A stretch of DNA of 64,000 nucleotides from a virus. Lineage: Duplodnaviria; Heunggongvirae; Uroviricota; Caudoviricetes. The translations under genes were made by a program, and so were the position numbers. Below are positions 13,297-33,162 of the stretch, in pieces. Location of the stretch: IMG/VR virus record IMGVR_UViG_3300006145_000003; one strand, 5' to 3'. Each line of letters starts with the position of its first letter. The stretch's first letter is position 1. The notes beneath the pieces are model-generated. The model was not told the DNA's origin and made no database searches. It was given only the letters and a program-made list of their open reading frames with translations.

Positions 13297-13974
13297 ATGA
13301 CTATGGATTTGTCTAAAAGTTATGAGTATTTTCAGCCTGAGAAGGTGACCGAAAGAATCAATATTGTCGGTTGCGGTTCTGTGGGAGCTACTATCGCAGA
13401 GAATTTGGTGAGGCTTGGACTCACCAAAATTTCTTTGTGGGATATGGATGCCGTTACACCACACAATCTTGCCAATCAGATTTTCCGGCATAAAGATATT
13501 GGGCACGCAAAGGTCGAAGCGCTGGCGGACATTCTCACAGAGATAAATCCTGATATCCAAGACGACTTGAAACTGTTTTCTGATGGATGGAACGGTCAGC
13601 AGCTTAACGGGTACGTCTTTTTGTGCGTGGACAATATTGAGTTGCGGCGGCAGATTGTCGAGAAGCATCTCAATAATCCCTATGTCAAAGCAATGTTCGA
13701 CTTCCGCACATTACTGGAGTCTGCGCAGCATTATGCGGCGGATTGGTCTAACTACAAGATGAAAAAGGACTTTCTTAACTCCATGGCGTTCTCTCACGAA
13801 GAGGCGGCAGAAGAGACTCCTGTGTCGGCCTGTGGGGTTACTCTCGGTGTTGCGCCAACTGTACGGATGATATGTGCTTTTGGTGTAACAAATTTCGTGA
13901 ATTTTGTCAGAGGGAACGGTCTGAAGAAGATGATTCTTAATGATGCGTTCCACTATATGCTTGATGCTTTTTAG
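13297..13974 (+). CDS. ThiF/MoeB/E1-like adenylyltransferase (Rossmann GxGxxG)
   Basis: INIVGCGSVGATIAENLVRLGLTKISLWDMDAVTPHNLANQ matches E1/ThiF nucleotide-binding motif. Confidence 0.65.
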   Translation: MTMDLSKSYEYFQPEKVTERINIVGCGSVGATIAENLVRLGLTKISLWDMDAVTPHNLANQIFRHKDIGHAKVEALADILTEINPDIQDDLKLFSDGWNGQQLNGYVFLCVDNIELRRQIVEKHLNNPYVKAMFDFRTLLESAQHYAADWSNYKMKKDFLNSMAFSHEEAAEETPVSACGVTLGVAPTVRMICAFGVTNFVNFVRGNGLKKMILNDAFHYMLDAF

Positions 13975-14016
13975 GGTGTTTGCAACGACATTCTCCCTAT
14001 AAAACTATGATTTTAT

Positions 14017-14357
14017 CTTAAAACTGTAACGTATATCCTGTTAAGGAGCTTTACGCTATAAGCTAAAGTGTCAAATTGCTGGGGAAGATACCCGCCGGAA
14101 GGGAAGCACTCCGCTCCGGACGCACGTCGGAACCCACCGGTCAAAAGGCAACAGCAGCTCGCTAGGGCAATTCGCAATACAGCAAACAGAGGATATTTCG
14201 GAATCACCAGGAGTTTGAGCAACAAAAGTCGCAATATAACCCAAATGACTTCAGGAATAACCCGCCCAACTGCGGCGAGTCAGCAACCAACGCCGCAAAT
14301 ATCACAGCTAAACGGAGGCGTGCCCAGACCAATACTCTATGTTAGGTTACAGCTAAG
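14017..14357 (+). ncRNA. candidate retron msr/msd non-coding region bounded by inverted repeats a1 (cttaaaactgtaac) and a2 (gttacagctaag); interior strongly A/C-rich
   Basis: 11/12 complementary inverted repeats flank ~315 nt directly upstream of the RT start, the arrangement typical of retrons. Confidence 0.35.
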
Positions 14358-14373
14358 TAAAGGAGAGACTATT

Positions 14374-15534
14374 ATGGTGTTTATAACAGTTAGGCAGTCA
14401 CCATTTTATCATCAAATGTCCTTGGAGGAATATCTGTTTCAGAACTTTGAATCGCCAGTGCTTATCAATGAAAACACAGCAAACACCAGAACGTATCAGT
14501 GTCGCACTGTGAGCTCCAAGTTTTTGGACAAGATAAATGTAGATGGGCTGATTTCAAAGCTCAAAAGGTTCAATGATTCAACAACAGAGCTGCGCAAAGA
14601 AAATCGCGAATCTCTATATAAAACATTTTACATTCCAAAGAAGTCTGGTGGGTTGCGCAAAATAAACGCACCAAAGCCAGATTTGATGGACGCACTAAGG
14701 AGGCTGAAAAGAATCTTTGAAGATGATTTTCATGCACTTTACCATACATCAGCCTTCGCTTACATACAAAATCGATGCACTGTAGATGCTGTAAAGCGGC
14801 ATCAAAATAATAAGAGTAAGTGGTTCGGTAAGTTAGACTTACATGATTTCTTTGGAAGCACTACTCTAGAATTCGTGTTAAATATGTTCTCGCTGATTTT
14901 CCCATTTAGCGAAGTAGTTAAGGTTCCAGATGGAAAAGAGGCGCTTGTAACTGCACTAGAACTTGCATTTTTAGATGGTGGGTTGCCTCAAGGAACTCCT
15001 ATATCTCCAACTATAACAAACATTATGATGATTCCAATTGATTTCGAACTTACAAAGGCATTTCGAGAGTTTCAAGTTGGAGTACCTGGCAAGAAAAAGA
15101 CGCAAAGTTTCATATATACAAGATATGCCGATGATTTCATTATTTCATCGAAGTATGACTTCGATGTTCGGAAAATTGAAGAATTTGTTGTGAACACTTT
15201 GGAGAAGTATAACGCTCCATTCACAATCAATGCAAAGAAGACAAGATATGGCTCATCTGCTGGCAGAAATTGGAACTTGGGCGTTATGCTTAACAAGGAT
15301 AATGAAATTACAGTAGGACACAAACGTAAGAAACAGTTTCAAGCAATGATGTATAATTACGTAACTGATAAGCGCAATGGCGTTGAGTGGACTCGTGAAG
15401 ACCTGATGACGATGCATGGCTTGTACAGCTATTATAGGATGGTTGAAAAGGATGTGATAGACGCAATTGTAAAGCATATGAATGACAAATTGAACGCAGA
15501 TGTTATCGCCTTGATAAAAGGTGATTTAAGATAG
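14374..15534 (+). CDS. reverse transcriptase, retron-type
   Basis: IPKKSGGLRKI, LDLHDFFGS, LPQGTPISP, YTRYADD, NAKKT motifs (RT motifs 1-7); no maturase or endonuclease domain; RBS aaaggagag. Confidence 0.85.
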   Translation: MVFITVRQSPFYHQMSLEEYLFQNFESPVLINENTANTRTYQCRTVSSKFLDKINVDGLISKLKRFNDSTTELRKENRESLYKTFYIPKKSGGLRKINAPKPDLMDALRRLKRIFEDDFHALYHTSAFAYIQNRCTVDAVKRHQNNKSKWFGKLDLHDFFGSTTLEFVLNMFSLIFPFSEVVKVPDGKEALVTALELAFLDGGLPQGTPISPTITNIMMIPIDFELTKAFREFQVGVPGKKKTQSFIYTRYADDFIISSKYDFDVRKIEEFVVNTLEKYNAPFTINAKKTRYGSSAGRNWNLGVMLNKDNEITVGHKRKKQFQAMMYNYVTDKRNGVEWTREDLMTMHGLYSYYRMVEKDVIDAIVKHMNDKLNADVIALIKGDLR

Positions 15535-17371: not shown

Positions 17372-17926
17372 ATGCGGGTTTTAGTAGTTGTTGATATGCA
17401 GAATGATTTTATTGATGGTACGCTTGGTACAGACGAGGCCATTACCATTGTGCCAAGGGTTATCGAAAAAATCAAGAAGTTTGATGGCGACATGATTATC
17501 ACTCATGATACCCACAAAGAAAATTACCTGGGTACGCTAGAAGGAAGAATGCTGCCGGTGACACATTGTATTCAAGGGACGGAGGGGTGGAAACTGCATG
17601 ATGAAGTTTTTTCAGCGGTTGACAACCGTGTCCGAGCCGGTACTGCTAATGCGCAGGTATTTATGAAACCTACATTTGGTTCGGTAGAATTGGGTGAATA
17701 CCTGGTTAACAAGAGTCATGATGTGGACATTGATGAGGTCGTTCTGGTGGGTTTGTGTACCGATATCTGCGTTATATCCAATGCTCTACTCATTAAAGCA
17801 TTTCTGCCAGAGATTAAGGTGACTGTGGATGCTGCCTGCTGCGCTGGGGGCACGCCAGAGAGCCACGAGAATGCTTTGCGGGCTATGCGGATGTGTCAGG
17901 TTAATGTCGAGAATTGGGAGGGATAA
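17372..17926 (+). CDS. pncA: nicotinamidase / isochorismatase-family hydrolase
   Basis: VVVDMQNDF and GLCTDICV catalytic motifs. Confidence 0.8.
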   Translation: MRVLVVVDMQNDFIDGTLGTDEAITIVPRVIEKIKKFDGDMIITHDTHKENYLGTLEGRMLPVTHCIQGTEGWKLHDEVFSAVDNRVRAGTANAQVFMKPTFGSVELGEYLVNKSHDVDIDEVVLVGLCTDICVISNALLIKAFLPEIKVTVDAACCAGGTPESHENALRAMRMCQVNVENWEG

Positions 17927-17927
17927 A

Positions 17928-18719
17928 ATGATTGCAGTTAATGGGGCACCAGTAGACTTCACACAGTTCCCGGATGGTACAACATCTTTCCGTTTTGACC
18001 CCGATTCAAGCACTACCATTTATTGGGGGTATGACGGAGACCATGAGTGTATCTTGCTGTGGTATTTAGTGAATCATGTCCGCTCTGTGGTAGGACATGA
18101 CACCTATATTCGTCTTATTATGCCATACATTCCAAATGCCAGAATGGATAGAGTAAAGAACAAGGATGAAGTGTTCACCCTAAAATGGTTTGCCGCTTTC
18201 ATTAACAATATGCATTTGAATGAGGTGATTGTGTTTGACCCACATTCCAATGTATCCGCTGCGCTTATCAATCACATCCAAGTTATTCAACCGGATAAAT
18301 ACATCAAAGAAGCAATCTCTGCTATCGGTGATAACAACCTTTTGCTGTGCTACCCAGATGAAGGTGCGGCTAAAAGATATTCTGAGCTGATGGAGGCCGA
18401 GTACATTTTCGGTATTAAGCATAGGGATTGGCGCACCGGCAGAATTGAGCGGCTAGAGTTGACCACTCCAGATAAGGTAGTAGGTCGTACTGTTCTAATT
18501 GTGGACGATATCTGTTCGCGTGGTGGCACGTTTACACATACGGCAAAGGCATTAAAAGAAGCAGGTGCCAATGACATATATCTATATGTTTCCCACTGTG
18601 AGAACACCATTACGAAAGGTACGGTACTGACAGACGACCTGATTCGTCATGTTTTTACCACTGACAGTATATATCGTGGTGAATATGAAAGAATCACCGT
18701 ATTAAAACAGGAGGCATAA
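17928..18719 (+). CDS. prs: ribose-phosphate pyrophosphokinase (PRPP synthetase)
   Basis: VLIVDDICSRGGTF PRPP-binding motif; overall Prs layout. Confidence 0.8.
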   Translation: MIAVNGAPVDFTQFPDGTTSFRFDPDSSTTIYWGYDGDHECILLWYLVNHVRSVVGHDTYIRLIMPYIPNARMDRVKNKDEVFTLKWFAAFINNMHLNEVIVFDPHSNVSAALINHIQVIQPDKYIKEAISAIGDNNLLLCYPDEGAAKRYSELMEAEYIFGIKHRDWRTGRIERLELTTPDKVVGRTVLIVDDICSRGGTFTHTAKALKEAGANDIYLYVSHCENTITKGTVLTDDLIRHVFTTDSIYRGEYERITVLKQEA

Positions 18720-18720
18720 A

Positions 18721-20235
18721 ATGATTCTATATAACCCATTGCTTTGTTTGGACTTTTACAAAACTGCCCATGCAGAGCAGTATCCGCAAACATTAACCAA
18801 AATGGTTTCTTACTATACGCCGCGAATGACCCGCTTGGAAGATACGGATAAGGTCACATTGTTTGGACTACAAGCGTTTATTAAGGAATTTCTTATTGAT
18901 GCGTTCAATATCAATTTCTTCTGGAAAAATTGGGAAGACGTACTTACGGAATATAAGCGTATTCTTAACGCCACCATCAATACGGATGGTATCGGAGAGA
19001 AACGGATGAAAGCACTGCACAACCTCAGGTATCTTCCTTTGGAGATTCGAGCTGTGCCAGAGGGTACTCGTACAAATATTAAGGTGCCACAGATTGAGAT
19101 TTCTAACACTCACCCGGATTTTGTATGGCTAGTCAACTCCATCGAAACCATGCTATCCTGTACCATGTGGCACACTCAGGTTTCCGCTGAGGTAGGATAC
19201 CGCTATCGTCAAATCGTCAATGAGTACGCCGAACGTACTTGTGATGATGGCACGGTTCGCGCAAGACTCCTTGGCGATTTTTCTATGCGCGGCCAGGAGA
19301 GTGCAGAAAGTGCAACTAAAAGCTCTGCTGCATTCTGTCTTAGCTTCCTGAATACAGCTACAGTTCCGGCCATCCTCTGGCTGGAGGACAACTATAACTG
19401 TGATTGTACCAAGGAGCAGGTTGCTTTCGGCGCTCTGTCCACAGAACACAGTGTGATGTGTTCGAACTATGCCATCGACGGCGATGAGATTACTCACATC
19501 AACCGACTTTTGACAGAGGTTTATCCGCATCAGAGTTTCTCTATGGTTAGCGATAGCTACGACTACTGGAATCTGGTGAACGAAATTCTACCCCAACTCA
19601 AGGATGAGATTCTGGCGCATGACGGTTGCTTGTCTATTCGCGGTGACAGCGGAGACCCTGTAGAAGTTGTTACTGAGACTGTATTTAGACTATGGGATAT
19701 CTTTGGCGGAACGGTCAACAGTAAAGGCTTTAAGGTTCTAAATCCTCATGTTAAGGCGTTGTATGGTGACAGCATTACACCCCGGCGCTGCAAGCAGATT
19801 TACGAAATCCTTGAGAACGCCGGGTTTGCCATTAACAATGTTGCTCTTGGTGTTGGTTCTTTCTCCATGCAATGTCTGGAGACAATTATCAGAAATGATG
19901 AGGGGCTAGCTGGTTATTCTGAGGTAAAAGCCTATGCGCCATATACTCGCGATACATTTGGTATCGCTGTTAAGGCCACATATGCCGAGGATGCTGATGG
20001 CAAGCCTATTATGATTTTCAAGAACCCCAAGACCGATACTGGACACTTTAAGAAGTCACAACGTGGTTGTTGCCGCGTGTATAAGGACGGTGACAACTAC
20101 ACCTATGAAGATGGCCTGACCTGGGCAGAAGCGCAAGGAAACAACGAGCTTCGGACGGTCTTCAAGAATGGTGAGTTTATCAAGACATACACACTATCCG
20201 AAGTACGCCAGAATCTTCACGGCGGACGGTTCTGA
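18721..20235 (+). CDS. nadV: nicotinamide phosphoribosyltransferase (Nampt/NadV)
   Basis: N-terminal DFYKTAH motif, ~500 aa; NAD-salvage neighbours. Confidence 0.8.
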   Translation: MILYNPLLCLDFYKTAHAEQYPQTLTKMVSYYTPRMTRLEDTDKVTLFGLQAFIKEFLIDAFNINFFWKNWEDVLTEYKRILNATINTDGIGEKRMKALHNLRYLPLEIRAVPEGTRTNIKVPQIEISNTHPDFVWLVNSIETMLSCTMWHTQVSAEVGYRYRQIVNEYAERTCDDGTVRARLLGDFSMRGQESAESATKSSAAFCLSFLNTATVPAILWLEDNYNCDCTKEQVAFGALSTEHSVMCSNYAIDGDEITHINRLLTEVYPHQSFSMVSDSYDYWNLVNEILPQLKDEILAHDGCLSIRGDSGDPVEVVTETVFRLWDIFGGTVNSKGFKVLNPHVKALYGDSITPRRCKQIYEILENAGFAINNVALGVGSFSMQCLETIIRNDEGLAGYSEVKAYAPYTRDTFGIAVKATYAEDADGKPIMIFKNPKTDTGHFKKSQRGCCRVYKDGDNYTYEDGLTWAEAQGNNELRTVFKNGEFIKTYTLSEVRQNLHGGRF

Positions 20236-20264
20236 TGGTGGCGATAGAGAAAAGAGGATAAGAA

Positions 20265-21019
20265 ATGATTTTTAACCCACAAGAAACAAAAGATGACCTC
20301 GTCCAATGGATTCGTAAGTATTTTGCCGACAATGGCCCGATGTGCAGCGCCGTTGTTGGTATATCTGGGGGTAAAGACAGCACCATTGTTGCGGCATTGT
20401 GCGTAGAGGCGCTTGGTAAGGACAGAGTTATTGGCGTCTTGATGCCAAACGGTGTCCAGAATGATATTGATGACTCTTTTAGTGTAGTGAACAGCCTCGG
20501 CATCCGGAACATCAAAGTCAACATTGGAGCCGCATATAAAGAACTAGTTGAAGCAGTCGATGGTGCACTAAATGAAAGTGTGAGTACGCAGACACGGGTA
20601 AACCTCCCCCACGACTCCGCATGGCAACGTTATATGCGGTTGCTCAATCACTGCCAAACGGAGGGCGCGTTGCTAATACTTGCAATATGTCCGAGGACTA
20701 TGTGGGATACTCCACAAAGTTCGGTGACAGTGCAGGTGATTTTAGTCCGCTTGCTAACCTCACAGTAAGTGAGGTACGACAGATTGGGTGCATTCTTTCA
20801 AATGAGCTTTCAATTCCGGCATACTTAATAACAAAGACTCCATCGGACGGTCTATGTGGTAAAACTGACGAGGATAACCTTGGCTTTACGTATAACCAGC
20901 TGGATGCATATATCATGACGGGGACATGCTGTGACGAAGAAATTGACCACAGGATTGCGAGTATGCACGACGCTAATCTACACAAGTTATTACCCATGCC
21001 AACATTTGCAATACTTTGA
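20265..21019 (+). pseudogene. nadE: NAD+ synthetase (NadE) interrupted by a -1 frameshift at C5 run 20606-20610
   Basis: Frame 1 has PP-loop GISGGKDST; frame 2 (from ~20600) has RLRMATLYAVAQ...GYSTKFGD; adding one C restores continuous NadE. Confidence 0.75.
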
Positions 21020-21342
21020 TGGAGGATAACAATACGGAGAAAAATAAAAGGAGTACGCGGAGGAAGTGTAAGACAGGCTTTCAGGTATATGTTCTGTACA
21101 CTTATTGGGATACACCGGATACCGAAGGAAACGAAGTCCTCGGTGTCTTCTTAAATCTGTCTGACTCCATTCTCGCTATGAAATCTGCTGCGGAATCTCT
21201 AAAAGTCCAATATCCTAGTGACTATTGGGAAGAAGACTTTACGTGGCGGGATGAACTTGAGATACATCTTGGAAGTCAAAAGGATAACCCGAGCCACGCA
21301 ACAATATATTGCTGGACAATTTCTGAGGAAACTTTGCAATAA
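21016..21342 (+). CDS. hypothetical protein
   Basis: ORF overlapping previous stop. Confidence 0.45.
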   Translation: MMEDNNTEKNKRSTRRKCKTGFQVYVLYTYWDTPDTEGNEVLGVFLNLSDSILAMKSAAESLKVQYPSDYWEEDFTWRDELEIHLGSQKDNPSHATIYCWTISEETLQ

Positions 21343-21351
21343 GGAGGTATT

Positions 21352-22629
21352 ATGAGGAATTCCTTAGTTCAGATTGAAGCGCTTTGTAAGGCGAAAGGAA
21401 AGAACGATAAATTGGACATCATTCGTCGAAATAGCAATAACGATGAGTTTTGCCAATTCCTCTACTATGCATTGAATCCAATGCTAACCTACAAGGTATC
21501 GGAGAGCAGGCTCCGGCAACCATTTATCTATACCACATCTGCACCTATTCCACCTTCAATGCTGAACATCTTTTCAATATGCGAAGAGTTATCCTCGCGC
21601 AAAGCTTTGGATTTTATAACTTTGGAGCAGGTATGCGCTTTTTTGGAAGCGTGTGAATCTGACGAGAAAGAGATATATATTAAGCTTCTGGCAAAAACAT
21701 TGCGGCTAGGTGTCACTGCGAAATCTGTCAATAAGGTTATCCCTGGTCTAATACCAACATGGGAAGTTCAACAGGCATATCCTATTGATGAACACTCCAT
21801 CAAGGACGGAGAATGGTTCGCTTTAACCCAGAAATTAAATGGGGTTAGAGCAACTTTTTATAAAGGAAAGCTTTATGCGCGAAGCGGAATCAAGTTTGAT
21901 GGTCTTGAGCATATCATACAGGAATTCTCATGGGATGTCAATGCGGAGTATGTGTTCGATGGAGAGCTTACTTTGCTGGATAAAGGTAGGCTTTCTGATA
22001 ATGAAGCCTTTCGGAAGGCAACAGGAATTATTAACTCGGATAGAGATAAAACGGGCATTTGCTATACAGTCTTCGACATGGTGAGTACATTAGAGTTTGA
22101 ATCGGACGGTTGCCTTACGACGTATGCAGTTCGACGTAAGGAGCTGGAAACAATAGCCCATAACTTTTCTGTCAACGGATACGTTCAGATTCTTCCAGTT
22201 CTTTATATGGGTACAGACCAGTCGAAAATTCCCGAACTTTTGGAGAAGATGGTTAACGAAGACAAAGAAGGGCTGATAGCAAATCTCGATGTCCCATATA
22301 GAAGGAAACGACATAAAGGAATATTGAAAATTAAAGAGTTCTACACTATGGATTTACCAATCATTCGTTGCGAAGAAGGAACTGGAAGACTTTCAGGTAC
22401 ATTAGGTAGTTTTGTTGTAAGTTTCTTCGATGATGAAGTTGGTATTGGTTCAGGATTTACGGATAGGGAAAGAGAAGAATTTTGGGGTATGCGTGAAGAA
22501 ATTGTAGGAATGCTTTGCGAGGTAAGATATAAGGAAATATCAAGCGACAAGAATACTGGAGCAAAAAGTCTACAATTCCCATCATTTGTACGCTTGCGCT
22601 TAGACAAGGAGGATGTAAGTTATGGCTAA
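21352..22629 (+). CDS. ATP-dependent DNA ligase (nucleotidyltransferase motif I KLNGVR)
   Basis: TQKLNGVRATF (motif I), EGLIAN (IV), ILKIK (V). Confidence 0.65.
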   Translation: MRNSLVQIEALCKAKGKNDKLDIIRRNSNNDEFCQFLYYALNPMLTYKVSESRLRQPFIYTTSAPIPPSMLNIFSICEELSSRKALDFITLEQVCAFLEACESDEKEIYIKLLAKTLRLGVTAKSVNKVIPGLIPTWEVQQAYPIDEHSIKDGEWFALTQKLNGVRATFYKGKLYARSGIKFDGLEHIIQEFSWDVNAEYVFDGELTLLDKGRLSDNEAFRKATGIINSDRDKTGICYTVFDMVSTLEFESDGCLTTYAVRRKELETIAHNFSVNGYVQILPVLYMGTDQSKIPELLEKMVNEDKEGLIANLDVPYRRKRHKGILKIKEFYTMDLPIIRCEEGTGRLSGTLGSFVVSFFDDEVGIGSGFTDREREEFWGMREEIVGMLCEVRYKEISSDKNTGAKSLQFPSFVRLRLDKEDVSYG

Positions 22630-22990
22630 GTGTATGGTATATACCGTCTACGACTTAATTGAGTTTTTGAAAAATAAGGGCGCAATTAGATGTACAACCT
22701 TAAGTGAACGAAAAAGGATTATTGAAGCTATTACCGAACTTGGAGCTTTTGACATGGCCCATGCCATTGAATATCTTGCGAATAATGGCGAAAGTACAGA
22801 GTATATGCATCCTACTCTGTGTAGTGAAAATACCATTGCATTTTTTAATGATGATGGACTGAGTGTGCGCGACTATGTTGAGTACAAAGAGGCAATGAAT
22901 GCAATCTATAGCGAAGGAATAGAAGATTGCTGTATGACAGAAAATGATTTTGAGGCAAAGGTTGCAGAAATGCTCTCTATTAAGCTATAG
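22622..22990 (+). CDS. hypothetical protein
   Basis: ORF overlapping ligase stop. Confidence 0.45.
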   Translation: MAKCMVYTVYDLIEFLKNKGAIRCTTLSERKRIIEAITELGAFDMAHAIEYLANNGESTEYMHPTLCSENTIAFFNDDGLSVRDYVEYKEAMNAIYSEGIEDCCMTENDFEAKVAEMLSIKL

Positions 22991-23075
22991 CAAATATGGC
23001 GATAAGGGTTGAACCCATATAATATATGAGACGTATTGGAAACGTGCGTCTGAACGATGAAACGGAGGAGACACA

Positions 23076-23231
23076 ATGAACTTTGTCTTCTGGATAGGCA
23101 TCATTATTGCAGTGGTGCTTCTATGGTTTTGTTTGAGCTTTGCATTTAAGGGAATTGGCGGAGCTGCACTGCACTTGTATAATGATGCGAAGAAGGAAAT
23201 CAGAGGTGAAAACTCTGATAAAAAACAATAA
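23076..23231 (+). CDS. small membrane protein (51 aa; below ORF-track cutoff)
   Basis: RBS ggaggag; single TM WIGIIIAVVLLWF; precedes SPFH gene. Confidence 0.45.
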   Translation: MNFVFWIGIIIAVVLLWFCLSFAFKGIGGAALHLYNDAKKEIRGENSDKKQ

Positions 23232-23252
23232 TTTGTAAAGGTGGTTTGCTGA

Positions 23253-24167
23253 TTGAAGGGAAAAATTGGAGCATTGATTCTGGCCGTGATTCTAATTCTC
23301 GGCATCGTGTGCTGCGTAGTATGTTTGGAGAAAATTCCTGCGGGCTATGTTGGTGTTGTGTACAATATGAACGGAGGAGTAGATGGAGAGGTTCTGCCGC
23401 AGGGGTGGCATCTTGTGCCACCTACTAAGAAAATAACCAAGTATTCAATTGGAATTGAGCAGTCGTATTTGACTGCGGAGGATAAGGGAGACTCTCCAAA
23501 AGACGAGAGCTTTAATATTCCAACGTCTGATGGAAAGACAGTGCGCGTTAACCTGGAATTTTCTTATCGTTTTGATGAGGCCCGAGTTTCTGAGACATTC
23601 GCGACATTCAAGGGCAAGTCTGGCGATACTATCAAGGACTCCTTTATTAAGCCAAAGGTTATTGCTTGGACTCAGGAAGTGTCTGCAAACTATCCCGTTA
23701 CAGACATATTCGGCGACAAGAGGACTGAAATCAATGCTGAGCTAGATACATACCTTCGCGAGAGATTTGACCAGTATGGTATCATCATTGATACGGTGAA
23801 CTTTACCGACATATCCGTGGACGATGAAACCGCATCGGCAATTCAGAAGAAAGTAACCGCTCAGCAGGAGCTAGAACTTGCTAATATTGAGGCACAAACA
23901 GCAAAGATTCAGGCCGAAAAGGACAAGGAAGTTGCCCAGATTCAGGCAGAGAAAACTATTATTGAGGCAGAGGCAAGCGCCGAAAAGGTGAGAATTGCCG
24001 CAGATGCCGAAGCCGATGCCAATCAAAAGATTGCTCGTTCACTAACTGGTGAACTGATTGAGAAAATCAAGTACGAGCGGTGGAACGGTGAGCTTCCTAC
24101 AGTTTCAGGCGGGAGTGCCATTGTAAGCATTGGGGAGCCCAATAACGAACCTGCTCCAGCTGAATAA
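23253..24167 (+). CDS. SPFH/band-7 (stomatin/HflC-like) membrane protein with C-terminal coiled coil, TTG start
   Basis: N-terminal TM then PAGYVGVVYN...G..LPQGWHLVPP; heptad-rich AQQELELANIEAQTAKIQAEKDKEVAQIQAEK. Confidence 0.65.
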   Translation: MKGKIGALILAVILILGIVCCVVCLEKIPAGYVGVVYNMNGGVDGEVLPQGWHLVPPTKKITKYSIGIEQSYLTAEDKGDSPKDESFNIPTSDGKTVRVNLEFSYRFDEARVSETFATFKGKSGDTIKDSFIKPKVIAWTQEVSANYPVTDIFGDKRTEINAELDTYLRERFDQYGIIIDTVNFTDISVDDETASAIQKKVTAQQELELANIEAQTAKIQAEKDKEVAQIQAEKTIIEAEASAEKVRIAADAEADANQKIARSLTGELIEKIKYERWNGELPTVSGGSAIVSIGEPNNEPAPAE

Positions 24168-24227
24168 CTAACGCATAAAAGTGAGGCATATTTACTCTTA
24201 TCGCAAGCCTCACAAAGTTATGCTAAG

Positions 24228-24290
24228 CGCAACCATATGCCATGCGATTGTTTCCGTCGCTTTGGCACACTGGTTGCGCTTTTTTTTTAT
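24228..24290 (+). terminator. candidate terminator: stem gcgcaacca/tggttgcgc followed by T9
   Basis: 9-bp stem with large loop then TTTTTTTTT. Confidence 0.45.
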
Positions 24291-24300
24291 TATATAGGTG

Positions 24301-24801
24301 ATGCAAATGGGTCGCAGAGTAATAGATTTATCTGGCAAAAAGTATGGAAATTTGACTGTCATTAGGCGCATTGATTCAGAAGATGAGCGAATTTTATGGG
24401 AGTGCAAATGTAGGTGCGGCAATTCTATTGTGGTGCGTGGAGACCATCTAAAGTCTGGCCGCGTAAGGTCATGTGGATGTATCCCGCGAGGGAAAAAGAG
24501 GGCCAGAGCTATGTCATCACAGGAGATGACCAGAACTACAGAAAGTCTTTTTAGACTAGAATATGACAAAGACAATCCATACCAGTCTCTCGCTAATGCA
24601 ATTGTTGCAATTGCGGTAGATGATTATCGTTCTGCTTTGCAGAGTAAAAACAATGAACTAGAAAGTTCCGTAAATGAGTTTTTTGATTCTAACTGGTTCA
24701 GAATGCTGACAAAAGTTGATGCATCTGTATTGAAAAGTTTAATCAGAAAAGAGCAAAATGGCGAAATGAACAAAATAAATATTGCGGAAGTAGTAGACTG
24801 A
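24301..24801 (+). CDS. Cys-rich hypothetical protein
   Basis: CKCRCGN...SCGC cluster. Confidence 0.45.
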   Translation: MQMGRRVIDLSGKKYGNLTVIRRIDSEDERILWECKCRCGNSIVVRGDHLKSGRVRSCGCIPRGKKRARAMSSQEMTRTTESLFRLEYDKDNPYQSLANAIVAIAVDDYRSALQSKNNELESSVNEFFDSNWFRMLTKVDASVLKSLIRKEQNGEMNKINIAEVVD

Positions 24802-24880
24802 TGATGGCTTAATATGCGAATATATGAGCTGGCATAAATCGAAAAAAACAGAAGCAAATACATAAGATGGGGCGTGTCAT

Positions 24881-25249
24881 ATGGACGAAATTTTTGAGAA
24901 AGAGTGCACAGAAAGCATCGAGGCAGAAGATATTGATGCTGCCGAAGAAAAAAGCATCATGAAGCAAAAAGTGGCACAGAGGAGAAGGAACACTTTTCTT
25001 AAGCGTAACCGACTTCTGCGTTTATCTAAGATAAGCCCTTACAACCCACGAATTTATCCATATGAAAGGGAAGTGTGGGAGAATGACGACTGGAAGTGTA
25101 TCAATAGGCCGTATGCAGTTCGCTCTCATAATTCAAATAGGTCTAAGTTCGCAAAGAGACGCTCTAACAAGCTGGTACGAAGGTACAATGGTACTTTTGT
25201 TGGAAGCAAGTATAAAAGAATGTATGATTTATGGTGGGAGGTTTACTGA
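24881..25249 (+). CDS. basic hypothetical protein
   Basis: ORF, K/R-rich. Confidence 0.45.
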   Translation: MDEIFEKECTESIEAEDIDAAEEKSIMKQKVAQRRRNTFLKRNRLLRLSKISPYNPRIYPYEREVWENDDWKCINRPYAVRSHNSNRSKFAKRRSNKLVRRYNGTFVGSKYKRMYDLWWEVY

Positions 25250-25252
25250 GGT

Positions 25253-26050
25253 ATGGGGAAAGCTTCATTGGGAAACAGAATGAAGAGGTATGAAATGGTG
25301 TCCTCAAATAGCCTAACACGTAGGACACCAGCAATCATTCGGATTGACGGTAAGGCATTTCATTCGTTTACGAAGGGAATGAATAGACCGTTTGACCCAG
25401 TATTTAGGAATACAATGGCCGAAACCATGAAAGAACTATGTCAGGGCATACAAGGTTGTGTGTTTGGATACACGCAGTCAGATGAAATATCGTTGTTACT
25501 AACAGATTACTCCACATTAGATACAGATGCCTGGTTTGGGTATGAAGTGCAAAAAATGTGTAGCATTGCGGCCTCCACTGCAACCCTATCATTTAATATC
25601 AATTTCATCGACCAAGCAAATGCTGCACAGCAATTCTACGATACAGAGGCAAGTATTGAGGGTTATATGAAATTTGACTATTCTGTGTATGAACGAAGGT
25701 TCAACAAAGCAAATTTTGATGCCCGAGTATTTTCGCTTCCAAAAGAAGAAGTATGTAATTATTTTATCTGGAGGCAGCAGGATGCAACAAGGAATAGCAT
25801 ACAATCAGCTGGTCAGGCTTATTTTAGCCATCATGAACTTCAAGGTAAAAATCAGACAGATATACAGGAAATGCTATGGAGTACACAAAACCTGAACTGG
25901 AATGACTACCCAGTGTGGTATAAACGTGGTGTTACTTGCTATAAGACACCCCAGAACATAGACAAAAAGACAACCCGCATGAAATGGGTAATTGATGATA
26001 AGCCTCCAATTTTTTCACAGGATAGAACCCATGTTGAGGCGTGGATATAG
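25253..26050 (+). CDS. Thg1-like protein (tRNA-His guanylyltransferase family 3'-5' polymerase)
   Basis: IRIDGKAFHSFTKG...FGYTQSDEISLLL matches Thg1 palm motifs. Confidence 0.8.
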   Translation: MGKASLGNRMKRYEMVSSNSLTRRTPAIIRIDGKAFHSFTKGMNRPFDPVFRNTMAETMKELCQGIQGCVFGYTQSDEISLLLTDYSTLDTDAWFGYEVQKMCSIAASTATLSFNINFIDQANAAQQFYDTEASIEGYMKFDYSVYERRFNKANFDARVFSLPKEEVCNYFIWRQQDATRNSIQSAGQAYFSHHELQGKNQTDIQEMLWSTQNLNWNDYPVWYKRGVTCYKTPQNIDKKTTRMKWVIDDKPPIFSQDRTHVEAWI

Positions 26051-26084
26051 TACAAATTTAGAATGTACTTAGAAAGGAGAAACT

Positions 26085-26885
26085 ATGAGCCATTATTCAG
26101 TTGCAGTTTTTTCAAGAAATGGTGGTAATGATGTTGATGAATTGTTGGCACCATTTGATGAGAACATGAGAGTAGATAGATATGTGTCTCATACAAAAGA
26201 AGAGTTAATAGAAATAGGCAAAAAGAACATACAAGACTATCGTGATTCTGTGTATGCAGAATATCTTCGTGACCCGGCCAAGTACCTCAGGGAACGTTGC
26301 GAGAATGACCCCGAGAATAGACACTATAGATATTTGCGTGACGAATTTCCACAAAGGCTCTCATGGACGGATGAAGAGATATATCAGTGCGAAATCGACG
26401 GATATGAACCTGACGAAATCGGTGATGATGGAGAGGTATACTCAACATATAATCCTCGGTCGAAGTGGGACTGGTATGAAGTCGGAGGAAGGTTTTCACA
26501 TCTTCTTCAATGCAAAGAGGAAATTCCACTAAGAGACCAGGCGTATGCGCTGGATGTGGATTTCGATGGTATGAAAGCAAGAAAAGAAAAATCGCTTATT
26601 CCATATGATGAGTTTATCTCACGGAATACTTTTTGGAAGCCAGAATATCTTAGAGAGATGTATCCAGACGAGCAAACATACATCGCAAGTAGGACATGCT
26701 TTAGTACATATGCGGTTATTACGCCCGACGGGGAATGGCACGCTCCAGGTAAGATGGGGTGGTGGGGTATGAGCAGCGAAACCCCAGACGAAGAGAGGGA
26801 GTGGGATTTAAAATATTACGAAAGATTTATCGCCCCAGCGATTGAGCATAACTGGCATATCACAATTGTAGATTGCCACATATAA
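26085..26885 (+). CDS. hypothetical protein
   Basis: ORF with RBS aaaggag. Confidence 0.5.
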   Translation: MSHYSVAVFSRNGGNDVDELLAPFDENMRVDRYVSHTKEELIEIGKKNIQDYRDSVYAEYLRDPAKYLRERCENDPENRHYRYLRDEFPQRLSWTDEEIYQCEIDGYEPDEIGDDGEVYSTYNPRSKWDWYEVGGRFSHLLQCKEEIPLRDQAYALDVDFDGMKARKEKSLIPYDEFISRNTFWKPEYLREMYPDEQTYIASRTCFSTYAVITPDGEWHAPGKMGWWGMSSETPDEEREWDLKYYERFIAPAIEHNWHITIVDCHI

Positions 26886-26899
26886 AGGAGAACCGCGTT

Positions 26900-27319
26900 A
26901 TGAAGATTGACTGTTTTAGGGGAAGGTATTTCTTCCTTAGCAACTTCTTTGCGTCCGATATCAGATACAATGGAGTGACTTTTCTGAATAATGAGGCAGC
27001 TTTTCAAGCTCAGAAATGCCCTGAAAGAGCAAGTGAGTTTTGTGAGCTGAATCCATCAGATGCAAAGCGTTTGGGCAGAAAAGTAAGGTTGAGAAGCGAC
27101 TGGGAATCTGTCAAAGATGATGTTATGTATGATGTCTGTCGCGCAAAATTTTCCCAAAACGCAGAGCTTAGAAGACAACTGCTCAATACAGGCGATGCAG
27201 AACTGGTTGAAGGAAACACCTGGGGTGATAGAGTTTGGGGTGTCTGCGGAGGCGTCGGAGAAAATCGGTTGGGTAGAATACTGATGCGCATCAGAGATGA
27301 GATGAGGGGACTGGATTGA
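26900..27319 (+). CDS. NADAR (YbiA-like, DUF1768) domain protein
   Basis: FLSNFF...YNGVTFLNNEAAFQAQK...W.....G matches NADAR signature; RBS aaaggag. Confidence 0.7.
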   Translation: MKIDCFRGRYFFLSNFFASDIRYNGVTFLNNEAAFQAQKCPERASEFCELNPSDAKRLGRKVRLRSDWESVKDDVMYDVCRAKFSQNAELRRQLLNTGDAELVEGNTWGDRVWGVCGGVGENRLGRILMRIRDEMRGLD

Positions 27320-27609
27320 GTATGCTGAAGACAATTTTGAGTGGTTATAGTTTGAACAGGGTGAAAGATGTGCTAGATGGCGATAATTTCAGTATCCGTG
27401 ATATTCCAGTGTTTATTTTATGGGGGTTCGTTTTTCTTCTATTGGTTGTAATTGGGATAGGAAGTGTAATATACGCCTTAGCCATTCCAATTATTGCACT
27501 GGCCTCATATGATGCTGGTAAACTTTTGCTATATGTACCAGACCTACTTGTTATGGCGATTTGCGCAGCTTCGCTTTTTGGATTTTTTAAAGTGATTGCC
27601 GATGGGTAA
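27316..27609 (+). CDS. membrane protein
   Basis: Two hydrophobic helices. Confidence 0.45.
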   Translation: MSMLKTILSGYSLNRVKDVLDGDNFSIRDIPVFILWGFVFLLLVVIGIGSVIYALAIPIIALASYDAGKLLLYVPDLLVMAICAASLFGFFKVIADG

Positions 27610-27802
27610 AGCAAAAAGAAAGGCTAGACCTTCTATGCCAAAGTGGTACTGGTATGTACAGGACGGGTGCTGGTTTTGTAAAACACCTAATAATTGCAGT
27701 CAATGTAAGCCAAATCGTGAGTTCCTAAAAGAGTTTGGGGCGAAAAAGCAAAAGGGGAAAACAGCTGCCTCGAAGAAAAGTAAATATGATGAGCAATATT
27801 GA
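27596..27802 (+). CDS. small basic Cys-containing protein
   Basis: ORF; CWFC...CSQC. Confidence 0.4.
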   Translation: MPMGKAKRKARPSMPKWYWYVQDGCWFCKTPNNCSQCKPNREFLKEFGAKKQKGKTAASKKSKYDEQY

Positions 27803-28274
27803 GCTATGTGATTCATATGGAATTATGTCTATAGGCAAGACCAAATTCCTGTTTGATATTGAGGATTTACATATTGCTGAGAACCGAGATTGGTATTGTG
27901 ACAAAGACGGCTACTTAGTAAGTTGCTATTACTACAATGGAGCACGTAGATTTGTGAGGTTTCATCGTATTGTGGTGGGGGCAATGCCTCAAGAAATTGT
28001 TGACCACATCAATGGAAACAGGGCAGATAATCGAAAAGCAAACCTTCGGTGTTGTTCAAGGGCCGAGAATAGTAGAAACAGAAAGGTATCCTCTACAAAT
28101 AAATCCGGTGTCACAGGCGTTTTCTATGACAGCGAGCGAGGAAAGTGGAGTGCGAATATTATCTACAACGCCAAAAGGATATATTTGGGGCGCTTTGAAA
28201 ACAAAGAAGATGCAGTAAGAGCTCGTCTTGCAAAAGAGCAAGAACTATATAAAGAATTCACACCAGTTCATTAG
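27786..28274 (+). CDS. HNH endonuclease with AP2 DNA-binding domain (homing endonuclease-like)
   Basis: VDHINGNRADNRKANLR (HNH) and SGVTGVFYDSERGKWSANIIYNAKRIYLGRFENKEDAVRA (AP2). Confidence 0.8.
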   Translation: MMSNIELCDSYGIMSIGKTKFLFDIEDLHIAENRDWYCDKDGYLVSCYYYNGARRFVRFHRIVVGAMPQEIVDHINGNRADNRKANLRCCSRAENSRNRKVSSTNKSGVTGVFYDSERGKWSANIIYNAKRIYLGRFENKEDAVRARLAKEQELYKEFTPVH

Positions 28275-28349
28275 GGCAAAAAGATTTAACTTATATTCTT
28301 CAATAGGGAAATAGTATTTCGGCCTGAAAAACAAGAGGAGAAAATAGAA

Positions 28350-28676
28350 ATGGAACCTGAAGTTAGAAAAATATATGATAGATTCTACGATGACCAGACA
28401 AAACAACAGAACGCAAAATTGCTCGGCGAATTCCAGGTGATTGAGCAAATCATGGAAGATGGATATGATGAATTATTTATTGGTCGCAATATAGAGTCAG
28501 GAGAGATATGCCTAATAAAAGGATATGAGGTTTGCTACTATAACAGCGGAATGGGTTATGCTGTATATCCTTTGAAGAATTTGCTCTCACCATGTGATTT
28601 GTGTATATATAATCCACCGTCAAGTATGGATGGGAAACCTTGTAGCATATGTCCAGCTTGTGCCATTCCGAGGTGA
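28350..28676 (+). CDS. hypothetical protein
   Basis: ORF. Confidence 0.45.
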   Translation: MEPEVRKIYDRFYDDQTKQQNAKLLGEFQVIEQIMEDGYDELFIGRNIESGEICLIKGYEVCYYNSGMGYAVYPLKNLLSPCDLCIYNPPSSMDGKPCSICPACAIPR

Positions 28677-28762
28677 AGAATGAAATTCTTCGTGTGGATT
28701 ATCTTGTCGTCCGGCGAAACCTCAAGAAGATATAAAAATGGGACTTGTTATGAGGAAACCTA

Positions 28763-28960
28763 ATGTATATTGATAAGCAACTTTTCGATTTGATTGTGGT
28801 TAAGCTTACGGTAGCATCCATTATAATGATTGCTAATTTCGTAAACGCAGCGAGGAAGCACGAAGAAGTTAACTCCGTTACATGGTTTAGTAACGGCTTT
28901 TGCATTATCACAACATTCATCCTTTGGATTATATGTATTTGTCTTGGAGATATATCATGA
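28763..28960 (+). CDS. small membrane protein
   Basis: Hydrophobic; preferred over overlapping minus ORF. Confidence 0.4.
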   Translation: MYIDKQLFDLIVVKLTVASIIMIANFVNAARKHEEVNSVTWFSNGFCIITTFILWIICICLGDIS

Positions 28961-29154
28961 GCTATAAAGAAACTATAGCTCTTACACAAGAAAGCATCAA
29001 CCTTTTTGAGGTCATACTTTCCACTTATCAGCTGGAAGCTGCCAGGAAAGGGTTGGAAATTACAATAAATGAAGTGAAGAAGTGTATTCCGACAAAGCCT
29101 ATTCAAAAAATGGTCGCCAAATCGTTGCCCAAATTGCGACGATGGCTATTTTAA
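28957..29154 (+). CDS. small hypothetical protein
   Basis: ATGA overlap with previous. Confidence 0.4.
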   Translation: MSYKETIALTQESINLFEVILSTYQLEAARKGLEITINEVKKCIPTKPIQKMVAKSLPKLRRWLF

Positions 29155-29239
29155 AAATCCATGGTATGAGTTTTTTGTCCGGCATGTAGGCAGACTCTTG
29201 ATTATGAATAAATCATTTTGGATAAAGGGATGGTAATCA

Positions 29240-30238
29240 ATGGCATATTTTGAAAACATCACCCTGGAAAAAGGTATGTACAACGTTTCAGGTAAGAACT
29301 TTACACAGGTTTTAGAGGAACTGGACAGCTCATGGAACTACCGTGGCACCCCTCTAGAGGGGTTTGACGCATATCATCGCCAGCTTAATCGCTACGCTAT
29401 TAAGGTGAGTGGCCCAGAAAGTAGCCCTGTGGAGAGCTTCTTTCAGAACAGCAACAGCGCTGTCCTTTTCCCGGAATATGTGGCAAGGGCTGTACGGCAG
29501 GGGATGGAGAGCGTCAATAAAATAAGCGATATGGTGGCAACGGTCACGAAGATAGAGGACCTGGACTACCGCAGCATCTCCGCCGGAGTTGATGATGACC
29601 CTAAAGGAGATGTGGCGGTAGAGGGTGCAGAGCTGCCTAAGACCAATATCACCACTAACTCCAGGCTAGTAAAGATGCAAAAGCGCGGCAGGATGCTGAC
29701 CGCCTCCTATGAGGCTTTGCGTTTCCAGAAACTTGACCTGCTCACCGTAGCCCTGCGGCAGATTGGCGCGTACATTGCGTATGCTACTACAAATGACGCA
29801 GTGGACGTGTTAGTGAATGGCGATGGCAACAAAGCAGGAATTGATTTCACACCTGGCTGCAAACCAGACTATACGGATTTTATCGGCTTGTGGGCAAAGA
29901 TTTCCCCCTATAGCCTGAACACAGTGGTTGCTGGTACTGCTGCCATGCAGAAGCTGCTGAATATGCCAGAGTTCAAGGACGCACAAGCGGGGACGAACTT
30001 CCGGGGCACTGGAAACCTGTGCACCTTCTTTGGAGCGAAGCTCATTCATGTGCCTGGCATGGACGAGTATAAGATACTGGCCTTGGACAAGAACTGTGCC
30101 CTGGAGATGGTACAGTCCGGCGATATCTGCACTGACACGGACAAACTAATTGACCGACAGCTAGAGCGAGCTGCTATCAGTGTGACGGCTGGGTTTGCGC
30201 GGATTTTTGAAGGGGCTGCTGTGGGGCTAGAATGTTAA
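29240..30238 (+). CDS. HK97-fold major capsid-like protein
   Basis: VEGAELPKT...RLVKMQKRGRMLTASYEAL resembles HK97-family EGAAKPES...VKKIAA...DELLED. Confidence 0.45.
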   Translation: MAYFENITLEKGMYNVSGKNFTQVLEELDSSWNYRGTPLEGFDAYHRQLNRYAIKVSGPESSPVESFFQNSNSAVLFPEYVARAVRQGMESVNKISDMVATVTKIEDLDYRSISAGVDDDPKGDVAVEGAELPKTNITTNSRLVKMQKRGRMLTASYEALRFQKLDLLTVALRQIGAYIAYATTNDAVDVLVNGDGNKAGIDFTPGCKPDYTDFIGLWAKISPYSLNTVVAGTAAMQKLLNMPEFKDAQAGTNFRGTGNLCTFFGAKLIHVPGMDEYKILALDKNCALEMVQSGDICTDTDKLIDRQLERAAISVTAGFARIFEGAAVGLEC

Positions 30239-30256
30239 TACTTATTTAAAAGTGCG

Positions 30257-30457
30257 ATGTGTTGGATACTTTTAACCGATGTGATTCAAAACAACTGTCT
30301 CTTTATTGATGGAGAGCAGGTTGAAATCCCAAAGTCATTTAGAAATACGGGCTTAAATGTTACTCAGTGTGATGGGAGACTGTATGTAAATGGATTTGAA
30401 TTAGTCAATGGTAAGTGGAAACGTACTCTGGCAACAATCTGGCGCTATATATTTTGA
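30257..30457 (+). CDS. small hypothetical protein
   Basis: ORF only. Confidence 0.3.
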   Translation: MCWILLTDVIQNNCLFIDGEQVEIPKSFRNTGLNVTQCDGRLYVNGFELVNGKWKRTLATIWRYIF

Positions 30458-30469
30458 AAGGATTACTTT

Positions 30470-30772
30470 ATGAATGAGTATAAAGATAGGCTACGCTCTG
30501 TCTTAAATGATGTAGAGAGAATAATCGAAGATGAACACGACATGGTTAAACTATTTCTTCGGGAGCTTTTCAACTTGCTATTCTGGAAGGATTATCGCGA
30601 AGGATATGTAGACCTCGACACCAGATATGAACTTATTAAGCTGATAGATTTCTATACGAAGCGAAAATCTGGAGACGATGAATGGTACGGGTTTGATGAT
30701 GTTGACCATGTGCACAGTGTTATTAGTAAAGTCCGTAACATGATTGGAATTAAAGAAGACTTACCAAAATAA
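30470..30772 (+). CDS. hypothetical protein
   Basis: ORF. Confidence 0.45.
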   Translation: MNEYKDRLRSVLNDVERIIEDEHDMVKLFLRELFNLLFWKDYREGYVDLDTRYELIKLIDFYTKRKSGDDEWYGFDDVDHVHSVISKVRNMIGIKEDLPK

Positions 30773-30780
30773 AAGGTTAA

Positions 30781-30791
30781 TTTGGTGGTGA
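30781..30791 (+). promoter_or_regulatory. Copy of conserved motif AAAA-N6-TTTGGTGGTGA (also at 35391, 39565, 41500)
   Basis: Four near-identical occurrences in short intergenic spacers. Confidence 0.5.
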
Positions 30792-30795
30792 CATT

Positions 30796-31251
30796 ATGTT
30801 GCAAATATCTAAAGGTGATATTTTACACGCCAAAGCAGCGTTTATTTGTCATCAGGTGAATTGCATGAACGCTATGGGCTCTGGAGTGGCAAAAGTTATT
30901 TGTACCAAATATCCAGAAGTGAAAACGATGTATCATGAATTTTGTTCAACAGCAGAAACGCCAAATGAGTTACTCGGAAAAATTCAAATTGTTCCGCTAC
31001 ACGGAGTTGGTATGGCTGTAATAAACATTTTCGGGCAATTAGATTATGGAAGATGTAAAGGAAGAATTTTTACAGACTATAACGCTTTGCAAAAGGCGTT
31101 CGCAGAAATTAACAAGCAATGCGCTGGAAAGTCCATTGCATTTCCATATGGATTTGGTTGTGGATTGGCAGGTGGGGATTGGGTTACAGTAGAAAAGCTC
31201 ATGTTAAATTACCTATGGAATTGCGATGTAAAAATCTACATGAAAGAATAA
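30796..31251 (+). CDS. Macro domain protein (ADP-ribose binding / hydrolase fold)
   Basis: AAFICHQVNCMNAMGSGVA and FPYGFGCGLAGG match Macro domain motifs. Confidence 0.7.
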   Translation: MLQISKGDILHAKAAFICHQVNCMNAMGSGVAKVICTKYPEVKTMYHEFCSTAETPNELLGKIQIVPLHGVGMAVINIFGQLDYGRCKGRIFTDYNALQKAFAEINKQCAGKSIAFPYGFGCGLAGGDWVTVEKLMLNYLWNCDVKIYMKE

Positions 31252-33142: not shown

Positions 33143-33162
33143 CAGTGAGGGAGGGTATAGAA

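Follow-up and report, generated by a model that had tools for sequence, protein, structure and literature searches.

We analysed a 64,000-nt stretch of phage DNA (IMG/VR record IMGVR_UViG_3300006145_000003; hereafter, the window), which carries on the + strand, at positions 17372-21019, a tightly packed operon of four genes encoding, in this order, a PncA-like nicotinamidase, an Adps-like protein of the Prs fold, a Namat-like transferase, and the NAD synthetase NadE. The sequence comparisons reported below indicate that this operon is probably a deamidated variant of NARP1, a phage pathway for the reconstitution of nicotinamide adenine dinucleotide (NAD). More specifically, we consider the chances slightly better than even that transferases with the base pocket found here (Ala/Ser in place of Asp/Ala) make nicotinic acid adenine dinucleotide (NaAD) from nicotinic acid and ADP-ribose pyrophosphate (ADPR-PP), an undescribed reaction. 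The resulting route, PncA-Adps-'Naat'-NadE, would be abundant in the phages of gut Clostridia, and would also be chromosomal, beside the regulator NrtR, as a housekeeping recycling of ADP-ribose (ADPR) in place of PncB-NadD. In the literature open to search, we found no paper in which NARP1 or Namat is linked with PncA, with NadE, or with nicotinic acid.

The stop-to-start spacers of the four core genes are 1, 1, and 29 nt, and a GGAGG-like ribosome-binding site precedes each gene. Thus, a first-pass annotation of this DNA, which had described the nicotinamidase, Prs, and Nampt genes as contiguous and translationally coupled, read the layout correctly. Its six family assignments (PncA, Prs, Nampt, NadE, and, further downstream, NADAR and Macro) were also all recovered in place by Pfam, with three corrections: on the basis of alignment, the Prs-like gene starts at the ATG in position 17928, one base past the PncA stop, and not at 17829; the NADAR gene starts at the ATG in 26900; and nadE is split in two. 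The scans for promoters and terminators returned no more sites than in shuffled sequence, and are therefore uninformative on the limits of the operon. A near-identity DNA search with the operon found no close match to the window among 50,697 phage records.

In NARP1, Adps converts ADPR and ATP to ADPR-PP, and Namat joins ADPR-PP and nicotinamide directly into NAD+ (bioRxiv 10.1101/2024.02.11.579819). The Prs-like protein of the window aligns end to end with the biochemically characterised Adps of Bacillus phage SPbetaL1 (38% identity, 145 bits), while its best score against the solved Prs structures is 58 bits. None of the NCBIfam Prs models is matched above its cut-off, and the same is true of SPbetaL1 Adps (94 and 106 bits versus a cut-off of 113); the window protein matches phrog_619 with 246 bits. 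By these comparisons, it groups with Adps and not with canonical Prs. Similarly, the transferase scores 405 bits to SPbetaL1 Namat (9w5x/9w5w; 43.5% identity) and 329 bits to 9ke8, versus at most 172 bits to the bacterial and human Nampt, and it retains the catalytic residues F187, R190, H243, R307, and D309. The two genes are adjacent, which is the feature by which the NARP1 authors detect the system. This grouping speaks against the classical Prs/Nampt salvage proposed in the first-pass annotation; its broader idea, a NAD-reconstitution module of the kind used against NAD-depleting immunity, is supported. Compared to the NARP1 of SPbetaL1 (bioRxiv 10.1101/2024.02.11.579819; structures in PMC12774641 and PMC13586617), the window thus has in common the adjacent Adps/Namat pair, the catalytic core, and the residues R38 and F381, and it differs in the Ala213/Ser240 pocket, in a 22-aa insertion in the clamp, and in having PncA and NadE as obligatory partners.

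The pocket difference concerns the residues that contact the base. The nicotinamide pocket of the SPbetaL1 Namat structure is formed by F189, R192, D215, A242, R306, D13', and Y15'. D215 hydrogen-bonds the amide, and the D215A mutation cuts NAD+ synthesis 8-fold. We take D219 of human Nampt to be the equivalent of D215; among the human Nampt mutants collected in a review table, D219A is inactive and D219S switches substrate. Every SPbetaL1 pocket residue is kept in the window except two, D215, replaced by A213, and A242, replaced by S240. In an alignment of 95 transferases (74 representatives at 50% identity and 21 locus sequences), positions 215/242 are Asp/Ala in 60 sequences, Ala/Ser in 26, Ser/Ser in eight, and Glu/Ala in one, and none is of a mixed type. 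The only columns separating the Asp/Ala from the Ala/Ser group are 215, 242, 239 (three residues before 242), and 33, which maps the functional divergence to the base pocket. A pocket accepting a carboxylate, i.e., nicotinic acid, rather than a carboxamide would be expected to lose an acidic side chain and to gain a hydroxyl, as seen here.

The gene context was compared across 80 IMG/VR loci, 80 loci from bacterial genomes, four metagenome contigs, and the phage records MT835544 and Phass-1 (a code-15 gut phage); a further 80 IMG/VR loci, collected from canonical Namat seeds, served as controls. A total of 163 loci carry an Ala/Ser (161) or Ser/Ser (2) transferase, and all of them come from gut phages or Clostridia. 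Within 8 kb of these loci, we found PncA in 151 cases and NadE in 149; PncA, Adps, and NadE were all present in 137/163 loci, the remainder being mostly truncated contigs. Conversely, none of the 81 distinct Asp/Ala NARP1 loci has PncA or NadE, and Adps is present in 78 of the 80 controls. Of the 50,697 phage records, 2041 contain a member of the Nampt/Namat family, 47 contain NadE, and 7, every one from human gut, contain a homologue of the window PncA. The four core genes are found in at least six orders across relatives with identity to the window down to less than 50% (for example, PncA-Adps-Namat-NadE; Adps-Namat-Macro-NadE-PncA; Adps-PncA-Namat-NadE; PncA-Namat-NadE-Adps). As they recur together in so many loci and arrangements, their clustering is not due to chance. 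The strict tie of PncA and NadE to the changed pocket points to a nicotinic acid/NaAD route, and it is at odds with the first-pass view of the two enzymes as mere salvage steps. The cassette is nearly absent from cultured phages and common in Clostridia genomes and in metagenomes of the gut, which supply 3,374 sequences to one 90% transferase cluster.

On this basis, we propose the following scheme. The pathway would start from the ADPR and nicotinamide that host NADases (TIR, SIR2, and similar) release by cleaving NAD+. The Adps-like enzyme would convert ADPR to ADPR-PP, an activity known for its homologues, and PncA, judging from its family and intact active site, would convert nicotinamide to nicotinic acid and NH3. 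Then, in what would be the new step, the Namat-like enzyme would join nicotinic acid and ADPR-PP directly into NaAD, and the NH3-dependent NadE, according to its family function, would convert NaAD to NAD+. The NH3 freed by PncA would match the NH3 used by NadE.

Among 150 cassette homologues, conservation of the PncA triad (D8/K99/C133) and metal site (D46/H48/H65) is 95% or more, and the best relative of the window protein in the PDB is the Pyrococcus horikoshii nicotinamidase 1ilw. Since it scores 40.7 on the NCBIfam equivalog model, below the cut-off of 174, we regard it as a divergent member of the family. The nadE gene is split in the window, with NAD_synthase Pfam matches on two overlapping open reading frames (ORFs; 20265-20768 and 20621-21019), and it is intact (255 aa) in the relatives with a 95%-identical transferase. 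Read as one fused frame, the gene gives 169 bits on TIGR00552 and 114 bits against 2e18, and encodes the P-loop GISGGKDS. With one base restored, it reads VNLPPRLRMATLY, which fits the N-x3-R-x-R-M spacing of solved NadE. The codon differences from a relative remain mostly synonymous past the shift (15 synonymous to 5 non-synonymous, versus 17 to 7 before it), a pattern of purifying selection, so the lesion is either very recent or a sequencing artefact. Programmed frameshifting was ruled out, as the gene is uninterrupted in relatives, with CCCTCC, and the run of five C is no recognised slippery heptamer. A Francisella-type NadE acting as nicotinamide mononucleotide (NMN) synthetase was also rejected, because it would still require an NMN adenylyltransferase (NMNAT). 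The final step in the window genome would depend on the host NadE, unless the frameshift is a sequencing error.

The first-pass annotation had recognised no NMNAT and had concluded that the pathway was incomplete. The absence holds: we found no Pfam match to CTP_transf_like in the ~100 window ORFs, the motif GxFxPx[HT]xGH does not occur in these ORFs, and a tblastn search with E. coli NadD gave no match in the window and none significant in 167 loci. The conclusion is not supported, since Namat joins ADPR-PP and the base directly into the dinucleotide; the absence of NMNAT is thus expected and leaves no gap. Indeed, as the adenylate is already within ADPR, no adenylyltransferase for NMN or nicotinic acid mononucleotide (NaMN) is needed. 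This separates the window from NARP2 (NadV and NadM/NatV, Vibrio phage KVP40) and NARP3 (PnuC and NadR; PMC13464706), which serve the same purpose, the restoration of NAD+ during infection, but require an NMN adenylyltransferase domain. The NARP3 families (PnuC-like transporter and NadR-like enzyme) are absent from the Pfam matches of the window ORFs, and no Pfam match to an RyR/RyDEP-type feeder enzyme was found in the window. The HIGH motif at the N terminus of E. coli NadD was weakly matched (E 0.007-0.4) near three bacterial cassettes (L140:4500-4748, L108:11869-11922, and L137:5848-5913), the only such hints in the 167 loci, and these may be nucleotidyltransferase genes.

The choice of donor relates to the clamp for adenine. 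The published Namat signature is GSXphiXphiXphiTRD, with X aromatic, plus a stacking residue (Arg/Lys/Tyr) in the clamp loop; Namat retains activity on phosphoribosyl pyrophosphate (PRPP) in vitro. In the window, GSF and TRD are kept, and the second and third aromatic positions are Met and Cys (Y394->M and Y396->C). R38 aligns with the stacking R40 of SPbetaL1, and the window keeps the clamp pair R38 and F381, whose equivalent double mutant is the most damaging in Namat (16.6-fold). Among the other transferases of Ala/Ser type, the motif is GSYTYQYNTRD in Clostridium isolates, GAYTYQYVTRD in Phass-1, and GSYSLQYVTRD in a Nanoarchaeia contig from a metagenome-assembled genome (MAG). All three conform to the signature or nearly so: the Clostridium relatives have it in full, and Phass-1 deviates at position 2 only. 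Thus, the altered base pocket coexists with an intact adenine clamp, and ADPR-PP as the donor is less certain in the window lineage, where the motif is altered, than in the Clostridium and Phass-1 lineages.

The transferase gene is also variable in length. The Namat-like genes of six loci (L061-L063, L065, L076, and L085) have an insertion of ~265 nt after transferase residue ~318, and many of the representatives at 50% identity are extended by hundreds of residues (560-1100 aa). This suggests that introns, inteins, or homing elements target the Namat-like gene.

In Desnuesiella massiliensis, the cassette is chromosomal, with ordinary cellular genes around it, and is preceded by an NrtR gene (Nudix and NrtR winged helix). 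NrtR is a repressor of NAD metabolism that is released from DNA by ADP-ribose. It adjoins the cassette in 55/80 bacterial loci (L148:5723-6625 and 54 among L092-L164) and in none of the viral loci. The closest genome matches to the window (76-83% identity) are without NrtR: Dysosmobacter segnis BX15 (L090), Oscillospiraceae bacterium 50-58 (L091), which has the ligase in common with the window, and a Clostridia MAG (L088) and a Lachnospiraceae MAG (L089), which have the SPFH and reverse-transcriptase genes in common with it. As the closest matches are such gut Clostridia, the host of the window is likely an Oscillospiraceae-type gut Clostridium.

Related operons have been described on bacterial chromosomes. 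The Preiss-Handler operon nrtR-pncA-pncB-nadD-nadE of Clostridium acetobutylicum (PMC2330246) has PncA, NadE, and the predicted intermediate NaAD in common with the cassette, and NrtR in common with its bacterial copies, but pncB-nadD, which use PRPP and ATP, are replaced in the cassette by adps-namat, built on the ADPR scaffold. The nrtR-prs-nadV operons of gamma-proteobacteria (PMC2330246) have a like Prs-like/NadV-like pair and an ADPR-sensing regulator, as described without PncA and NadE. The same kind of pair is chromosomal in the bacterial NARP1 of Paenibacillus foliorum (PMC12774641), as described also without PncA and NadE.

These comparisons bear on a first alternative, which we consider unlikely, that the cassette boosts the Preiss-Handler pathway of the host: the Prs-like protein would make PRPP, the Namat-like enzyme would convert nicotinic acid and PRPP to NaMN, the host NadD would convert NaMN to NaAD, and the phage NadE would finish. 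The presence of PncA and NadE, the altered pocket, and the PRPP activity of Namat in vitro would be compatible with it, and so would the NCBIfam name of the Namat-like protein, which is that of a NadV-type phosphoribosyltransferase model. Furthermore, the window lineage has lost two of the three clamp aromatics, and the insertion breaks the motif. However, the cassette almost always includes NadE but never NadD, an enzyme just as universal, for which no significant match was found in 167 loci. In addition, the Prs-like partner resembles Adps in all cases, far nearer to it than to any Prs. Both observations favour direct NaAD formation. The canonical clamp of the other Ala/Ser lineages and the chromosomal copies beside the ADPR-responsive NrtR also argue against a PRPP-based route.

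Less probable still is the coexistence of two routes in one operon, i.e., an ordinary NARP1 and a PncA/NadE pair boosting the host PncB-NadD, with the pocket changes as neutral markers. The strong homology to Adps and Namat would agree with this, and PncA and NadE could have been acquired in a single event by the ancestor of an Ala/Ser clade. Against it, the lost Asp is the residue that binds the amide, and both SPbetaL1 Namat and human Nampt are crippled without it; the columns separating the two groups point to the base pocket. In addition, PncA would use up the nicotinamide on which a Namat of the same operon depended, and the four genes remain linked through many rearrangements.

The first-pass annotation had also tied the Macro and NADAR proteins encoded downstream to the NAD module, and this link is borne out by the relatives: Macro lies inside the operon in dozens of loci, and NADAR adjoins NadE or Namat in several. 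The window Macro matches phrog_335 ('phosphatase', 117 bits) and is 44% identical to the Macro lying between Namat and NadE in the relatives with the 95%-identical transferase. Its homologues fill this slot in dozens of related loci, while the window copy is 10 kb downstream of the operon. The family profile scores 66.5 bits to BT1257, 48.6 bits to yeast Poa1p (6lfu), and ~39 bits to TARG1, and the protein scores 48.6 bits on the NCBIfam DarG model, whose cut-off is 250. An invariant Gln of the family aligns with what we take to be the catalytic Lys of TARG1, K84. Since the DarG score is far below the cut-off and a Gln stands at this position, the Macro protein is more likely a phosphatase of ADPR-1''-phosphate feeding ADPR into the pathway than an enzyme reversing DarT. 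A Poa1p-like Macro of NARP1 operons, Adpp, converts ADPR-1''-phosphate to ADPR, the former being the product of NAD+ cleavage by RES domains (bioRxiv 10.64898/2026.01.28.702374). By analogy, the window Macro would probably turn the product of a RES-type NAD phosphorylase into ADPR. In NARP1-AP (NARP1 with Adpp, Vibrio phage Gary; bioRxiv 10.64898/2026.01.28.702374), a Poa1p-like Macro is tied to the module, as in the relatives of the window; the window Macro itself stands away from the operon and is just 44% identical to the in-operon copy of the relatives. Its likeness to Adpp is by way of Poa1p.

The Macro slot can also be occupied by another gene. A 139-aa protein is encoded there in NARP1-type operons of both pocket types, in Phass-1 (L003:8582-9001), in several other loci (L037, L043, L044, L047, L048, L061-L063, L084, and L137), and in 11/80 control loci. 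It has no Pfam match, matches phrog_1238 ('phosphoheptose isomerase'), was never seen along with Macro, and is not encoded in the window. We regard it as a candidate further accessory enzyme.

The NADAR protein scores 81 bits to E. coli YbiA (2b3w), is above the TIGR02464 cut-off with 89 bits, and keeps the diagnostic Glu (ELVEG aligned to KLVEH). This YbiA-type Glu excludes the AdfN/gp30.3 (His) and DarT1-linked (Asp) subtypes. In six loci (L017, L021, L076, L099, L100, and L137), a NADAR gene is the immediate neighbour of NadE or Namat, and in Phass-1 one is found at a distance of at most 6 kb. Every NADAR tested so far strips ADP-ribose from guanine in vitro (AdfN paper, PMC11257639); in 2022, phage NADARs were linked to NAD salvage genes, and soluble ADP-ribose derivatives were proposed as their substrates. 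In the window, NADAR would probably free ADPR from N-glycosidic conjugates or strip ADP-ribose from bases. The NADAR fold is common to AdfN (phage gp30.3, anti-DarT1; PMC11257639) and E. coli YbiA; unlike AdfN, the window protein has the Glu of YbiA, and it is encoded among genes for NAD reconstitution and tRNA repair. Therefore, DarT-type reversal, the role given to the two proteins in the first-pass annotation, fits poorly with a Poa1p-like Macro and a YbiA-type NADAR.

The complete first-pass model, an incomplete salvage in which Prs makes PRPP, Nampt makes NMN, and a host or unrecognised NMNAT finishes, with Macro and NADAR reversing DarT-type ADP-ribosylation, is very improbable: it agrees with the Pfam and PHROG names (Prs and Nampt), with the in vitro activity of NADARs on ADP-ribosylated guanine, and with the weak likeness of Macro to the DarG macro domain, but the two enzymes fall in the Namat/Adps clade, the Asp required for nicotinamide use is missing, NMNAT was not found in the window or its relatives, the Macro of the relatives is inside the NAD operon, like Adpp, with a Gln at the presumed Lys position of TARG1/DarG, and NADAR is not of AdfN type.

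Some points weigh against a deamidated NARP1 variant with a role in counter-defence. The base specificity is deduced from two residues and the gene context. In the window, nadE is frameshifted and the in-operon Macro gene is missing, and the clamp of this lineage is altered by a 22-aa insertion and by Y394->M and Y396->C. The Ala/Ser transferases may form one clade, in which case the association could go back to few independent events, so the locus counts are not independent trials. Finally, the anti-defence role of the cassette is assigned by analogy, and the many chromosomal copies in Clostridia suggest that it serves there for housekeeping recycling.

As regards the genomic setting, the window is phage-like, with nearly all genes on the + strand and eight tRNA genes. 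The 14-kb span from PncA to Macro also carries unrelated genes recognised by Pfam (ATP-dependent DNA ligase, SPFH, Thg1-like, HNH, and capsid-like), and the HNH-AP2 gene is probably a mobile homing element. Upstream of the operon, a reverse-transcriptase ORF (RVT_1, 14068-15534) follows a ThiF-like gene (13297-13974) and the uncharacterised ORFs 10825-12357 and 12354-13289; this block (10825-15534) is also found in the close relatives L004-L007. Beside the tRNA genes, the window encodes a tRNA-repair kit, composed of Thg1-like, RtcB, CCA-adding/PolyA_pol, and RlaP proteins. In several relatives (L009-L012, L018, and L033), an RtcB gene is inserted between the Adps and Namat-like genes, so RNA-repair and NAD genes are intermingled. 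The window ORFs (1-44322 and 44325-63987) also include a serine recombinase, a tyrosine integrase, and a MazF/PemK-like toxin, together with DNA polymerase III alpha, DnaB, primase, and ERF. These genes, and the presence of loci with a 76%-identical transferase inside large contigs of Oscillospiraceae isolates (Dysosmobacter segnis BX15 and Oscillospiraceae 50-58, the latter also with the ligase), suggest that the window belongs to a temperate phage of gut Clostridia.

Table 1. Positions of the operon, of its diagnostic sites, and of the other window features discussed in the text
Feature	Positions	Strand	Remarks
PncA-like nicotinamidase, 184 aa	17372..17926	+	Pfam Isochorismatase, 87.6 bits
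Adps-like (Prs-fold) protein, 263 aa	17928..18719	+	Predicted ADPR + ATP -> ADPR-PP
Namat-like transferase with altered base pocket, 504 aa	18721..20235	+	Pfam NAPRTase + NAMPT_N
Codon Ala213, aligned with the amide-binding D215 of SPbetaL1	19357..19359	+	From alignments
Codon Ser240, aligned with the pocket residue A242 of SPbetaL1	19438..19440	+	From alignments
Modified selectivity clamp helix, GSFSMQC(22-aa insertion)YTRD	19855..19953	+	
NH3-dependent NAD synthetase NadE, frame split by a 1-nt deletion	20265..21019	+	Predicted NaAD -> NAD
C5 run, site of the nadE frameshift	20606..20610	+	CCCTCC in relatives, CCCCC in the window (DNA alignment)
ATP-dependent DNA ligase	21352-22629		Large ORF downstream of nadE
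tRNA-repair genes	25253-26050; 33145-34368; ORFs within 44325-63987		
YbiA-family NADAR N-glycosidase, 139 aa	26900..27319	+	Accessory, predicted role; Pfam NADAR, 101 bits
HNH endonuclease with AP2 domain	27735-28274		Between the NADAR gene and the capsid-like gene
Macro-domain protein, Adpp/Poa1p-like, 151 aa	30796..31251	+	Pfam, 23.4 bits (cut-off 22)

NAD depletion is among the commonest antiviral strategies of bacteria, and the known phage answers to it, NARP1, NARP1-AP, NARP2, and NARP3, came from cultured phages. If the deamidated NARP1 variant proposed here is correct, the Namat-like transferase would represent a new enzyme activity and the cassette a new branch of NAD metabolism. This would explain a long-standing puzzle of annotation, i.e., the finding of a 'Nampt' together with PncA and NadE and yet with no adenylyltransferase, and residues 213 and 240 would provide a simple sequence rule to tell nicotinamide-type from nicotinate-type enzymes. 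Beyond phages, it would suggest that gut Clostridia recycle ADP-ribose to NAD under the control of NrtR.

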